Assembly: GCA_002707205.1 (NCBI GenBank)
Contig: PAMH01000034.1
Location: forward strand, 47,337-111,336
Direction of reading: 5' to 3'
Origin: Legionellales bacterium
GTDB taxonomy: Bacteria; Pseudomonadota; Gammaproteobacteria; UBA1113
Length of the DNA stretch: 64,000 bases
The notes beneath the pieces were generated by a model. It ran no database searches and had not been told where the DNA came from. It saw only the letters and a list, made by a program, of their open reading frames with translations. The position numbers and the translations under genes are program-made. How positions within the stretch are numbered: position 1 is the first letter of the stretch; each line of letters begins with the position of its first letter. Of this stretch, positions 2,847 to 47,690 are shown in pieces.

Positions 2847-2906
2847 GGTATCTATTGTATACTTAAATTACCCTAAAAAGCGATTTCCAGCTCACAATTG
2901 TCACAC
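2847..2906. promoter_or_regulatory. Degenerate third copy of the shared promoter-like element (see 40311..40360 and 47641..47690), ~30 nt upstream of the plsY start codon
   Basis: Shares ACCCTAAAAAGCGA and AATTGTCACA blocks, and a TATACAAT -10-like box on the plsY sense strand, with the two better copies. Confidence 0.3.
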
Positions 2907-3099
2907 AAAATATGTTTTTTGTTAAAAGTTCAGGAAGAATGCTCAGGGATGAAAATATTTTATAAAAACTTCACATTTCTATATACTGCTACATTAAAAC
3001 CATTTTAACATGCGAAGTTTTAATAGAAAAAAGATGGCGTTAAAAATCGCATGTTAAGGTAATTTGAGTATAAACATTTATGATAAACAAAGGTATAAA

Positions 3100-3645
3100 A
3101 TGACAAAGTCTGTAGATAATTTAATTTGGATTGATTTAGAAATGACAGGACTTGATCCGATGCAAGATCGGATCATTGAAATAGCAACAATTGTTACAGA
3201 TGCACATTTAAATATTCTGGCTGAAGGGCCAGTGATTGCAATAAAACAGACAAATATTGTACTTGAGGGTATGGATGCTTGGAATACAAAGCAACATGGT
3301 CAATCAGGGTTAACTGAGCGTGTGAAAAATAGTCTAGAGACGGAAGCAAGCGCAGAGGCTAAAACCTTACAGTTTTTAGCTCAATATATCGAAAGTGGCG
3401 TCTCACCAATGTGCGGTAATAGTATTTGCCAAGATCGCCGGTTTTTAAATCGTTATATGCCACAATTGGAAGCTTATTTTCATTATCGTCACATTGATGT
3501 GAGTACCTTAAAAGAATTAGCTCGTCGCTGGAAACCAGAAATTATGTCTGAGTTTAAAAAAGTCTCAAAGCATTTGGCATTGGATGATATTAAGGATTCG
3601 ATTGAGGAATTGGCATTCTATCGTTCAACCTTTTTACAGATCTAA
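3100..3645 (+). CDS. orn: Oligoribonuclease
   Basis: [13 protein letters not shown]...[12 protein letters not shown]...[20 protein letters not shown] closely matches Orn. The likely start is the ATG at 3100 with an AAGG RBS; the ORF track begins at 3064. Confidence 0.9.
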
Positions 3646-4763
3646 TAATTCATATTTAACCGTGCAGTTAGTTTTTTTCGTGTAAGATCTTGGCGTTGAT
3701 TGGAACCTGTTTGGTGACGATTCAATGCCCAGATCACATGTTCTTTGACCATTTCATTAGGATAAGTTAAACGGGATTTTAAGGCTTGAATAATTTCAGC
3801 ATTACTCGGGGCATTACCTAGCGCAACGGCGATATTTCTTAACCAGCATGCATGACCAATGCGTCTTATCGCTGAACCTTCTGTCTTTTTTAGAAAAGTG
3901 GCTTCATCCCATAAAAACAAATCGACTAAATCACGATTATCCAGATCATGACGCGGATGAAATTGCACTTGATCCGTTGCTTTGGCATAACGATTCCATG
4001 GACAGATAAGTTGGCAATCATCACAACCATAAATACGATTACCAATGAGAGGTCTTAGCGATTCAGGAATAGCGTCACGTAATTCTATCGTTAAATAGGA
4101 AATACAGCGTCTTGCGTCTAATTGATGCGGTGCAACAATTGCGCCAGTAGGGCAAACGGTGATACAGGCGCGACAATGACCGCAAGCTTCTTTTTGTGGT
4201 GTTTGATTGATTGGCAAGGGTAAATCAGTAAATAATTCACCTAAAAAAAACCAAGAGCCAGCATTTTTGTTCATTAATAAAGTATTTTTACCAATCCAGC
4301 CTAAACCTGCTTTTTCAGCTAACGGTTTCTCTAAAATTGGCGCGCTATCAGTGAATGCACGATAACCAAAGATACCAATTTCTGTTTTTATTTTATCGGC
4401 TAACTGGGTTAATTTCTTACGTAAGTACTTATGATAATCTCCACCCAGCGCGTAACGTGAAACATAGGCTTTTTGGTCGGCATTAATCACGTTAATGGCA
4501 TTTGTTTGTTCGGGTAAATAGTTCATACCTACACTGATAATACGAATAGTCTCAGGCAATAACTTTTCAGGCTGGCAACGTAATTGTACATGACGTTGCA
4601 TGTATTGCATTTCACCATGAAAACCTTGTGCTAACCAATCTTTAAAATCATTATGATATTGGCTCAAGTCACAATCCGTAATACCCATGTGAGCAAAGCC
4701 AAGCTCGTATGCCCATTGTTTAATTTGTTTAGCAAGGTGTGAAAAATTTATAGATTGTGTCAT
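3642..4763 (-). CDS. queG: Epoxyqueuosine reductase QueG (4Fe-4S, cobalamin-dependent)
   Basis: [16 protein letters not shown] and [11 protein letters not shown] ferredoxin-type motifs; ~370 aa, typical QueG length. Confidence 0.8.
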
Positions 4764-4836
4764 GATGCATTAATAGTGAATGTTAGTTAATGCCATTATT
4801 TTATCAGGAAGCATTTTTTGCGCAAAGGAGAATTTT

Positions 4837-45425: not shown

Positions 45426-46969
45426 AAATCGATTGTCTTTACGTTAATTTGTTTATATTTAGCATTTTCTTTAAAATCTTTAATGAGTTCGACAACATCA
45501 TAAGCAATGGACTTTGCATTAGAGCAATCAATAATTACAGTAGATTTTTCTGGTAATGCATCTAAAGCTTGCATGATATTTGCTTTATTAAAAAAAGACA
45601 CCTCCTCTGCTAAAACGAGATGATGTATGGGTTCATTATTTTCAGTTTCTAGGATATCTTTCATATAATAGGCATTGCGATAGCTATGGCGCAAAGTAAA
45701 GAATAGGCCAAAGCACATACCAATAATAATTCCTGTGAGCAAATCCGTGATTAAGACACTGATAACTGTTGCCAAAAAAGGCACAAATTGTTCTGCACCT
45801 AATTGATACATTTTTTTAAAGAGATCGGGATGTGCTAGCTTGTAACCAATAATAATTAAAATAGCAGCTAAAGAAGCTAATGGTATCATATTAAGTATCG
45901 GTGCAATCGTGATGGCAAATAATAATAAAAATAAACCATGCATAATCGTTGATAGTTTAGTTTTGCCGCCAAAATTTACATTTGCTGAGCTGCGAATAAT
46001 AACTTGGGTTATTGGTAGTCCCCCCAACAAACCTGAAATCATATTACCTAAACCTTGCGCTTTTAATTCACGATTCGTTGGTGTAATGCGTTTATGTGGA
46101 TCCATTTTGTCAGTTGCTTCAACACACAGTAAAGTTTCAAGACTTGCAACTATCATTAATACGATAGCTGTTTTCCATGTAATAAGTTTAGTTAATGCAG
46201 AAAAGTCAGGATGTGTAAATTGTGTAATAAATTCAGACCAATTTTCTGGTGTAGGAATTTGAACAATATTTTCTTTTCCTAAAGTTAATCCTAAAAAACC
46301 CCATTGATAAAACCAATAAAATAAAATACCGAGGATAACAACAGCAATGGGGCCTTGTATGATTTGAAATACCTTATGTTTTTTTATTAAAATTTTATCC
46401 CATAGTATCAGTGTCAATAATGAAAATACCGAAATAATGGTAGCTGCAAAATTACAGTGTCCAAGTGCTTGATAGATGGCATTAAAGGTTGTATCTCCAC
46501 TTAGCTGATAAGAAGAAAGATCGATGATTGCATTGGTATTATAACCGATAGCATAGGGAATTTGCTTTAGAATAATTAATAAACCAATACCTGTTAAAAC
46601 ACCTTTCACAACAGAGAGAGGAAAGAAATAAGCGATAAATCCTGCTTTACAATAACCTAATATAATTTGCATTAAACCAGCAAGTACAACACAGGCTAAA
46701 AAAGCTTCCCAAGATCCCAATGCTTGAATAGCAGATAAAACAATCACAACTAAGCCAGCGGCGGGGCCACTAACACCCAAACTGGATTTGCTTGCAAAGC
46801 CAACAATAATACCACCAATAATTCCTGCAATAATGCCGGAAAATAAAGGAGCGCCGGATGCTAGAGCTATTCCTAAACACAAAGGTAGTGCAACAAAAGT
46901 GACAATAATGCTGGCAGACAGGTCATTTTTAAAATAAGTAAATTCTAGTTCCTTTAGCATTTTAAGCAT
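45416..46969 (-). CDS. SulP-family anion transporter with a C-terminal STAS domain; a bicarbonate/sulfate transporter candidate
   Basis: Polytopic SulP core plus a STAS-like C-terminus. Overlaps HIT and follows beta-carbonic anhydrase in the same orientation. Confidence 0.85.
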   Translation of the reverse strand: MLKMLKELEFTYFKNDLSASIIVTFVALPLCLGIALASGAPLFSGIIAGIIGGIIVGFASKSSLGVSGPAAGLVVIVLSAIQALGSWEAFLACVVLAGLMQIILGYCKAGFIAYFFPLSVVKGVLTGIGLLIILKQIPYAIGYNTNAIIDLSSYQLSGDTTFNAIYQALGHCNFAATIISVFSLLTLILWDKILIKKHKVFQIIQGPIAVVILGILFYWFYQWGFLGLTLGKENIVQIPTPENWSEFITQFTHPDFSALTKLITWKTAIVLMIVASLETLLCVEATDKMDPHKRITPTNRELKAQGLGNMISGLLGGLPITQVIIRSSANVNFGGKTKLSTIMHGLFLLLFAITIAPILNMIPLASLAAILIIIGYKLAHPDLFKKMYQLGAEQFVPFLATVISVLITDLLTGIIIGMCFGLFFTLRHSYRNAYYMKDILETENNEPIHHLVLAEEVSFFNKANIMQALDALPEKSTVIIDCSNAKSIAYDVVELIKDFKENAKYKQINVKTIDFWE

Positions 46970-46987
46970 AAGTTCCTCTCTATGTTT

Positions 46988-47620
46988 TTAATTTAAAAAA
47001 GTGACTTTGCCTGTTGCAATGTCATATATTCCACCAACAATTTTAATTTCATTGGTTTCAACTAATGTTTTTAAAGTGTCACTCTTTTGTAAAATAGTAT
47101 CAATACTATTGCGTACATTTTTTTCTGTGACATGTGTTAAAAATTCTGTTTTATCTTTTTCATAAGTGTAGTTCTGCGCAGTAGATTCAACGGCTGGCTG
47201 AATTTTATTAAGTAAGGTGGTTAAGTGTGACATTTCCACATGTTCGCACGCGCCTTGAATTGCACCACAAGAGGTATGGCCTAAAACAACAATTAATTTA
47301 GAACCTGCAATTTTACAAGCAAACTCCATGCTACCTAAAATATCTTCATTGACGATATTACCTGCAATACGAATACTAAAAATATCACCTAACCCCTGAT
47401 CAAAAATTAATTCAGCCGTGGTTCTAGAATCAATGCAGCTTAATATTGTCGCAAAAGGATATTGTCCACTTGCAGTTTCATTAACTTGCTGTAGTAAATT
47501 TCTATCAAAACTCAAGTTGTCAATAAAGCGTTGATTACCCTTTCTTAAAAGTTCAATGGCTTGTTCTGGGGTAATTTTTTGTTGCATGGTTTGTGTTAGT
47601 GTTTTCATTGAGTTGCTCAT
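46988..47620 (-). CDS. can: Beta-class carbonic anhydrase
   Basis: Zinc ligands in SCIDSR and HTSCGA motifs; 210 aa. Confidence 0.85.
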   Translation of the reverse strand: MSNSMKTLTQTMQQKITPEQAIELLRKGNQRFIDNLSFDRNLLQQVNETASGQYPFATILSCIDSRTTAELIFDQGLGDIFSIRIAGNIVNEDILGSMEFACKIAGSKLIVVLGHTSCGAIQGACEHVEMSHLTTLLNKIQPAVESTAQNYTYEKDKTEFLTHVTEKNVRNSIDTILQKSDTLKTLVETNEIKIVGGIYDIATGKVTFLN

Positions 47621-47640
47621 TCCTACAGAACTTACTTAAA

Positions 47641-47690
47641 TATGTATTATATACCCAAACCACCTCAAAATGCGAAGTCATTTGGAGATA
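47641..47690. promoter_or_regulatory. Conserved promoter-like element, copy 2, ~26 nt upstream of the carbonic anhydrase start; same orientation and architecture as copy 1
   Basis: GTATTATATACCCAAACCACCTCAAAATGCGAAG. The sense strand gives TTCGCA-19-TATAAT overlapping the GGGTAT-N3-ATAC palindrome. Confidence 0.45.

Follow-up and report, generated by a model that had tools for sequence, protein, structure and literature searches.

The DNA considered here is a stretch of 64,000 nt from the 135,805-bp contig PAMH01000034.1 (the window, by which the whole stretch is meant throughout), which belongs to a marine Legionellales metagenome-assembled genome (MAG) from TARA Oceans and whose proteins are filed at NCBI as MAZ39942-MAZ39983. 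Two nearly identical sequences of 34 nt are found in it, one just upstream of a gene for a ZIP-family metal transporter and the other just upstream of genes for a beta-carbonic anhydrase (CA) and a SulP permease. Do these sequences place two zinc-related genes under one regulator, or are they of a different nature altogether? The evidence presented below suggests that the repeat is probably the conserved terminal inverted repeat of a miniature, non-coding, TA-flanked family resembling MITEs (miniature transposable elements with inverted repeats), whose gene-adjacent ends have been retained as outward promoters. The two sequences and the genes behind them are:

40312-40347, minus strand: copy c1, a solo MITE end of the 'TCGCA type' (CTTCGCATTTTAGGGTGGTTTGGGTATATAATACCC), with TATAAT at 40316-40321.
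39534-40277, minus strand: gene for a ZIP-family metal transporter, downstream of c1 (Pfam PF02535, E = 1e-27).
47642-47677, minus strand: copy c2, a solo MITE end of the 'TCGCA type' (CTTCGCATTTTGAGGTGGTTTGGGTATATAATACAT), upstream of the beta-CA gene.
45416-47620, minus strand: genes for the beta-CA (46988-47620) and the SulP permease (45416-46969), downstream of c2 (Pfam PF00484 and PF00916).

On the plus strand of the window, GTATTATATACCCAAACCACCYYAAAATGCGAAG has two exact matches, at 40314-40347 and 47644-47677, compared with none expected from 100 shuffles. The ZIP-side and CA-side copies are identical at 32 of 34 positions, the sole difference being CT in place of TC, and on the minus strand, which is the sense strand of the genes, they read CTTCGCATTTT, then AG or GA, then GGTGGTTTGGGTATATAATAC. 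The original prediction of two near-identical upstream copies is therefore borne out, although its coordinates were 2 nt off, and the ZIP and beta-CA/SulP genes are as it named them, by Pfam. The boxes that it described on the gene-sense strand, TTCGCA-19-TATAAT, are present in both copies and can alternatively be read as TTCGCA-17-TATATA. The outer end of c1 lies 34 nt from the ZIP ATG (40277), and that of c2 lies 21 nt from the first CA ATG (47620) and 33 nt from the second, at which the NCBI annotation of the beta-CA starts (206 aa).

Near-identical copies at two zinc-related genes invite the explanation that a zinc- or CO2-responsive regulator controls ZIP and the Zn-dependent CA together, with the inverted repeat GGGTAT-N3-ATACCC (GGGTATNNNATACCC) as its operator. 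This inverted repeat had been put forward as a shared feature lying over the -10 box, but it is perfect in the ZIP copy only; the CA copy carries 2 mismatches, and at a stringency of 2 mismatches about one chance match per window is expected, so the palindrome cannot be counted as a feature of the element. A weak AT-rich stretch resembling half of a Zur site, ATGTTATATTTTAAAAT (47686-47702), adjoins c2 in the spacer between CA and DUF2490 and could be taken in favour of zinc control. It matches a Zur consensus at 15 of 17 positions, which is within chance in an AT-rich spacer, and it fails a 3-mismatch search; a search that allowed 3 mismatches to a 19-mer consensus found no Zur-type box next to either ZIP or CA. 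The one strong box of the Zur type (GTTATAATATAAC, 9682-9694) stands elsewhere in the window, upstream of the following gene:

9773-10222: Fur-family gene, 149 aa (PF01475, E = 6.5e-9), divergent from a 511-aa open reading frame (ORF) without a Pfam hit.

The Zur/Fur-type palindrome at this place, GCGTTATAATATAACAC, occupies 9680-9696, about 80-90 nt upstream of the Fur-family gene, and is the only good box of its kind in the window; the gene probably encodes an autoregulated metal-responsive repressor. Furthermore, the end seen at ZIP and CA also precedes plsY, orn, coaD and the gene for DAHP synthase in this lineage and, in other genera, housekeeping genes by the dozen that have nothing in common. 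In other orders it forms the terminal repeat of an element with many copies, and a close relative has not kept its spacer at the orthologous ZIP gene. Since the downstream genes are diverse and the only good Zur-type box lies elsewhere, the zinc theme of the original prediction is coincidental, and a zinc- or CO2-responsive operator is very improbable.

What the repeat is instead becomes clearer between plsY and orn, where the following features are found:

2850-2885, minus strand: copy c3, the left arm read outward (AATCGCTTTTTAGGGTAATTTAAGTATACAATAGAT), with a TACAAT box, 24 nt upstream of the plsY ATG (2825).
2220-2825, minus strand: plsY, downstream of c3 (Pfam PF02660).
3045-3080, plus strand: copy c4, the right arm read outward (AATCGCATGTTAAGGTAATTTGAGTATAAACATTTA), with a TATAAA box, 19 nt upstream of the orn ATG (3100).
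3100-3645, plus strand: orn, for an oligoribonuclease, downstream of c4 (Pfam PF00929; oligoribonuclease in NCBI MAZ39943.1).
2990-3020 (approximate), minus strand: copy c5, an internal, partial and degenerate end with an insertion of about 8 nt, which pairs with c4 (31 nt, 71% complementary; DNA fold z = -2.6).
2858-3072, no strand assigned: complete MITE-like element of about 215 bp, with arms at 2858-2886 and 3044-3072.

The looser third copy that had been noticed upstream of plsY is real: at 2853-2883 on the minus strand it fits TCGCNTTTTNNGGTNNTTTNNGTATANAATA, a pattern derived from three copies, which matches those three sites only, with none expected by chance. Copies c4 and c5, which were absent from the original prediction, were found by a relaxed search and a position weight matrix (PWM). 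Together c3 and c4 are the arms of one complete element, 29 nt long, 86% complementary and 157 nt apart. The element takes up nearly the whole of the divergent plsY-orn intergenic region (2826-3099), outside which 24 and 19 nt are left by the limits of c3 and c4, or 32 and 27 nt by those of the 215-bp element. Copies c1 and c2, on the other hand, are solo ends whose element bodies are absent: c1 has no partner arm in the 198-bp ZIP spacer and c2 no inverted partner in the 129-bp CA spacer. A PWM built from four window copies revealed no further copy above a low threshold in the 64 kb, which argues that the element is not a general promoter consensus of this organism. Every copy in the window stands between divergent genes, each of which therefore needs a promoter of its own there. 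The c1/ZIP spacer is identical across six metagenome contigs of the same strain, and the comparative signal from these is nil. The neighbour of ZIP, a 693-aa gene at 40476-42557, adjoins it in all the same-strain contigs; directed at this gene, on the strand opposite to c1 and just inside its inner flank, is a perfect TTGACA (40351-40356, plus strand), with no convincing -10 box 16-18 nt from it. A motif akin to this TTGACA site, TGTGACAATT, occurs inside the plsY-orn element at 2897-2906.

A second element of the same lineage, of about 222 bp, is found on an AT-rich TARA contig (locus L144), where it is flanked by coaD and a gene for a CBS-domain protein; its ends are those of the plsY-orn element, with which it also has subterminal sequence in common (GCGATTTTTAAC..TCTTTTTT). 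A further solo end (c6, with TATAAT) lies 34 nt upstream of a gene for class-II DAHP synthase, about 7.5 kb to the left of the window. Over about 95 kb and one additional contig, this Legionellales lineage has two complete elements and three solo ends. When metagenomes were scanned with a pattern tuned to the lineage, only 16 loci came back, and four of the matches are copies from the window itself; at that stringency, at least, the element therefore has few copies in this lineage.

Outside the lineage, the fallback of the original prediction, that the sequence is a small dispersed repeat, proves correct. When one genome per bacterial species was scanned with a 26-nt core pattern (TCGCNTNTTNNGGTNNTTTNNGTATA), the core was found at no fewer than 117 loci, and among the matches listed all but 3 record titles belong to Pseudoalteromonas, Colwellia, Photobacterium, Vibrio, Aliivibrio, Shewanella, Rheinheimera, Alkalimonas or Paraglaciecola. 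The pattern fixes 18 positions, so that conservation in solo copies is biased by ascertainment; the family consensus is TGAAACTCGCATCTTGAGGTGGTTTGGGTATA, and the positions that the pattern leaves free also agree with the window copies. Copy c2 is identical to the family consensus of the end, CTCGCATCTTGAGGTGGTTTGGGTATA, at 25 of 27 positions. Pseudoalteromonas neustonica has at least 12 copies, on different contigs, and plasmids carry the family as well, at 12 places on a 220-kb plasmid of Vibrio tritonius and also on plasmids of Photobacterium damselae and others, where whole units have no annotation or are called 'hypothetical protein'. Among marine Alteromonadales and Vibrionales the family is common. 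No exact match to two patterns was found in viral contigs.

Read outward, the family consensus is (TGAAA)CTCGCATCTTGAGGTGGTTTGGG-TATA, a conserved terminal inverted repeat of about 27-32 bp. Alignment of 12 Pseudoalteromonas copies with 260 nt of upstream sequence revealed a unit of about 260 bp with the inverted ends TATACCCAAGCCACCTCAAGATGCAG...CTCGCATCTTGAGGTGGTTTGGGTATA, and similarity between the copies ends exactly at the terminal TATA (GTATA). The lengths of paired units concentrate around 260-280 bp (46 pairs), and there are shorter classes that measure about 56 and 160-200 bp. Terminal inverted repeats are present in the Pseudoalteromonas copies and the plsY-orn element alike, and small size without a transposase gene likewise holds, the units measuring about 56 to 280 bp and the window element 215 bp. 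Such repeats and size, a lack of coding capacity and many dispersed copies are what characterizes MITEs. The repeat of the window is homologous to a dispersed inverted-repeat element. All aligned copies read TA-TACCC...GGGTA-TA without any longer duplication, this TA being indistinguishable from the repeat's own first two bases; a further TA often follows either end, and at a head-to-head junction, GGGTA-TA-TACCC, one TA is common to both elements. The TA flanks and this junction are compatible with TA target duplication, and from the TA flanks the partner would be IS630-like. One such junction is seen in Paraglaciecola (locus L029, 5040-5415), where copies of about 110 bp and 265 bp abut head-to-head with one TA in common. 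Two tandem copies of about 264 bp stand at locus L094 (2690-3213), while the loci of sister species (L045 and L062) have one.

Several known systems offer a comparison, since the Correia elements, SonMITE_1 and QMITE1 all carry sigma-70 promoters (PMC10969869). The Correia elements (CREE) of Neisseria are likewise short, non-coding and TA-flanked, their terminal inverted repeats measure about 26-30 bp and start with TATA, and they have many copies, often just 5' of genes, whose ends create outward sigma-70 promoters (PMC10969869, PMC3184786). The present family differs in its hosts, which are marine Gammaproteobacteria and a Legionellales MAG in place of Neisseria, in having one functionally biased end and many solo ends, and in that its promoter activity is a prediction, whereas that of Correia elements is a measured property. 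No similarity in sequence to the Correia end (TATAGTGGATTAA...) is apparent. The Shewanella element SonMITE_1 is again a MITE reported to carry a sigma-70-like promoter, and its hosts overlap with those described here, since Shewanella carries the present family (locus L085). QMITE1, another MITE with a reported sigma-70-like promoter, belongs to Coxiella, which is likewise a member of the Legionellales. Its length is 300-400 bp, its terminal repeat has 21 bp and its direct repeats vary from 2 to 4 bp; beyond Coxiella, the authors who described it found no orthologues (PMC5896051). Its size, repeat and restriction to Coxiella mark it as a different family. The ERIC/IRU sequences of Enterobacteriaceae and Vibrionaceae are similarly intergenic, imperfect palindromes of about 100-270 bp and occur in Vibrionaceae; however, in 5,426 genomes of Escherichia coli, which carries ERIC, there is no match to the 35-nt end and none to a complete Vibrio copy of 267 bp, and there is accordingly no detectable homology to ERIC. 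Finally, the putative mobile promoters of Matus-Garcia, Nijveen and van Passel (2012) are likewise sequences of high similarity that stand before unrelated genes, within and between genomes (PMC3488235). None of the present genera is named in that survey, in which repeats with further copies away from promoters were filtered out (PMC3488235), and for the present family, unlike those promoters, a vehicle has been identified in the inverted-repeat element. Among the papers searched, none contains the end sequence and none turned up on MITEs in Pseudoalteromonas. The family therefore appears to be an unnamed MITE family, which can be likened to SonMITE_1 in concept and host group. It is not a known RNA family either, as the window and 12 carrier loci gave no match in Rfam at the gathering threshold. 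A function at the RNA level was dropped, because solo ends have no pairing partner and the Shine-Dalgarno-like GAGGTG is too far from any start codon.

If the ends serve genes, they should be placed and oriented accordingly. Genes at the fetched loci were called as ORFs of at least 100 aa with an ATG start, orthologous duplicates were removed, and the sample of TCGCA-type ends consists of the matches listed. TCGCA-type ends face a gene start in 58 cases and a stop in 25 (binomial p = 4e-4); for 40 of 100, an ATG on the same strand follows at a distance of 15-80 nt. For the opposite 'TCTGCA-type' ends, which form an internal control, starts and stops are balanced (22:24), and 5 of 52 lie at that distance (Fisher p = 7e-5). 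The bias is strongest in solo TCGCA ends, with starts over stops at 25:4 and 20 of 38 lying 15-80 nt upstream, against 27:21 and 14 of 56 where the TCGCA end belongs to a complete element. It had been stated that a spread over many loci without regard to the position of genes would speak against a regulatory element; the loci are indeed many, but genes do matter for their placement, as the TCGCA end is biased toward gene starts. Two orthologous Pseudoalteromonas loci show how a solo end relates to a complete element, for L101 has the complete element and L041 only the gene-proximal end, before the same downstream gene and at the same distance. Moreover, (TA)AT frequently follows directly after the TCGCA end and completes a TATAAT, and positions 5-8 past the tip are richer in G+C at this end than at the other. 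At the dinB locus of Photobacterium lipolyticum (L033), a perfect LexA box (CTGTATATAAAGACAG) begins 9 nt past the GTATA tip of the element, which would be the usual site for an operator if the end is the dinB promoter. After the end at the Photobacterium uvrD loci L021 and L030 there is likewise a sequence resembling the SOS box of E. coli uvrD (TTGT...CCAG).

The -10 boxes within the ends are in keeping with a promoter. A -10-like box near TATAAT is present throughout (TATAAT in c1, c2 and c6, TACAAT in c3 and TATAAA in c4), at 25-38 nt from the start codon in c1-c4. The weak -35-like (T/A)TCGC(A/T) matches TTGACA at 3-4 of 6 positions and stands 17 nt from TATATA (c1 and c2) or from TATAAT (c6 and L149). 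The last of these is the site upstream of ZIP in a relative whose UvrD is 88% identical; it reads CTTCGCTTCTTAACGCGCGGAAGGTATAAT, with TTCGCT-17-TATAAT kept and the spacer between the boxes diverged, and the ZIP spacer of that relative retains CTTCGCTTCTTAA...GGTATAAT. Conservation of the spacer had been regarded as the sign of a site for a common regulator, but it is better explained by descent from a terminal inverted repeat, of which this ZIP copy lost the spacer and kept the boxes. With regard to orthologous upstream regions, the expected conservation holds in part, since the ZIP gene of the close relative retains the boxes and CA orthologues at 70-73% identity have no element. The label 'promoter-like' nevertheless is plausible and, as far as sequence can tell, would be the best functional reading of the gene-adjacent copies.

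Several results weigh against a mobile-element end retained as a promoter, and part of them would favour a simpler alternative, in which decaying MITE ends have no role, forming merely the 5' untranslated region, and the true promoters lie in the element body or further upstream. Neither c1 nor c2 is called as a promoter in a scan with the sigma-70 consensus (16-18-nt spacer, at least 9 of 12 matches), and the site that the scan favours for plsY is an internal TTAACA-17-GACAAT upstream of c3. TCGCA is a poor match to TTGACA, and one Vibrio copy has TAGCA. The CA orthologues mentioned above do without the element and have unrelated promoters, and MITEs accumulate in intergenic DNA in any case. 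There are also negative results on mobility: a search with 126 simulated excisions brought up the solo-end orthologue and the difference between tandem and single copies but not one clean empty site, and no autonomous insertion sequence with the family ends, for which the bounding sequence is TACCCAAACCACCTCAAGATGC, was found within the 8-kb loci fetched. In view of these two negatives, mobility and the TA duplication are inferences. Inverted pairs 800-3,000 bp apart were considered as an autonomous partner and rejected, because they are separate elements around ordinary genes; one pair spanning 1,242 bp, for instance, consists of two elements around a gene whose product lacks evident transposase features.

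Against decay without a role, the bias in orientation and distance is confined to one end of the element and is greatest where that end stands alone. In addition, L041 retains the gene-proximal end alone, the hexamers and their spacing are kept in the L149 ZIP orthologue, and the 129-bp CA spacer has no better -10 box than the TATAAT of c2. Debris without function is for these reasons an unlikely account, and ends of a MITE-like element retained as promoters remain the preferred one.

A last difficulty for retained promoters lies in the core itself, which is fully kept, spacer included, in solo copies across genera, at ttcA in Pseudoalteromonas and Colwellia and at thiI in Shewanella and Vibrio, and this is more than a plain promoter needs. 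The genes behind the ends are of interest in this respect. Solo ends in other taxa precede the genes for TtcA (twice), MnmA, TadA, an RluA-like synthase, RsuA, RluF, ThiI, TruA and YjgA, as well as YoaA, RecQ, DinB, XseA, PdxB, RibF, HemC, FolB, CyaY, PpiB, ArgR, YegS and YebC; in Vibrio parahaemolyticus the end precedes thiI. Complete elements precede those for UvrD, RuvB, DinF, dGTPase, DusA, QueA, GlnS, LptF, MsbA and others. Among 30 solo-end genes scanned (loci L015-L118), 10, those listed above from TtcA (counted twice) to YjgA, concern tRNA, rRNA or ribosome biogenesis and 4 DNA repair. It could thus be proposed that the end of about 30 bp is more than a promoter, being either a site for a host protein or a promoter of a special class (growth-rate or stringent control), that it defines a housekeeping set across orders (tRNA/rRNA modification, DNA repair and cofactor synthesis), and that the MITE spreads the site. 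The G+C-rich positions 5-8 past the tip, which resemble a discriminator, would fit such a proposal. However, the sample comprises the first approximately 117 matches listed, with a pattern that forces conservation; the complete elements stand before a broader mix of genes, of which 2 of 16 annotated act on tRNA; and the orthologues that are unbiased by the pattern, L149 and L041, have lost much of the core. Tolerance of insertion near non-essential single-gene operons, together with ascertainment by an exact pattern, could produce the same enrichment after solo ends. We know of no candidate protein that binds the core of about 30 bp. That the 'TCGCA...GGTTTGGGTATA' end is a module read by a host factor common to Alteromonadales, Vibrionales and this Legionellales lineage, through which the MITE wires ZIP, CA, plsY and orn into one circuit, is accordingly quite unlikely, as is the proposal as a whole; if true, it would present a bacterial transposable element that distributes a regulatory site.

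Some other features of the window lie apart from the element. Besides the 693-aa gene (40476-42557, plus strand), the ORFs at 8036-9571 (minus strand, 511 aa) and 336-1829 (minus strand, 497 aa) are large and without a Pfam family (E <= 0.001-0.01). The 497-aa protein is encoded in part by nested coding tandem repeats at 576-919, which combine a 9-nt unit (CTTCAGATG, 11 overlapping 45-nt windows in a 9-nt register) with units of 51-66 nt. Most long direct repeats in the window have their source in genes for Legionella major outer-membrane proteins (PF05150, about 300-380 aa), with five tandem paralogues at 14757-20445 and three more at 59200-62010, and these tandem paralogues agree with the naming of the MAG as Legionellales. 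No tRNA genes were found in the window.

The history of the repeat under retained promoters may be pictured as follows. The element would insert at TA dinucleotides, often within TATAAT boxes, yielding GGGTA-TA-TAAT or GGGTA-TA-AT. Insertions would persist where the 'TCGCA' end faces a gene and restores a working sigma-70-type promoter; the remainder of the element would then decay, with the end staying on as the promoter of that gene.

To summarize, a tempting mis-annotation can be corrected, as the near-identical sequences at two zinc-related genes are mobile-element ends and not a regulon. At least three orders of marine Gammaproteobacteria have the conserved family end, and it appears to have been kept repeatedly as the promoter of genes with housekeeping roles. 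Elements of the Legionellales lineage fill two entire divergent intergenic regions and would drive both flanking genes if the ends are indeed promoters. The 35-bp end is a candidate portable promoter for Pseudoalteromonas and Vibrio hosts and, should promoter activity be confirmed, the family would be a marine counterpart of the Correia elements of Neisseria.

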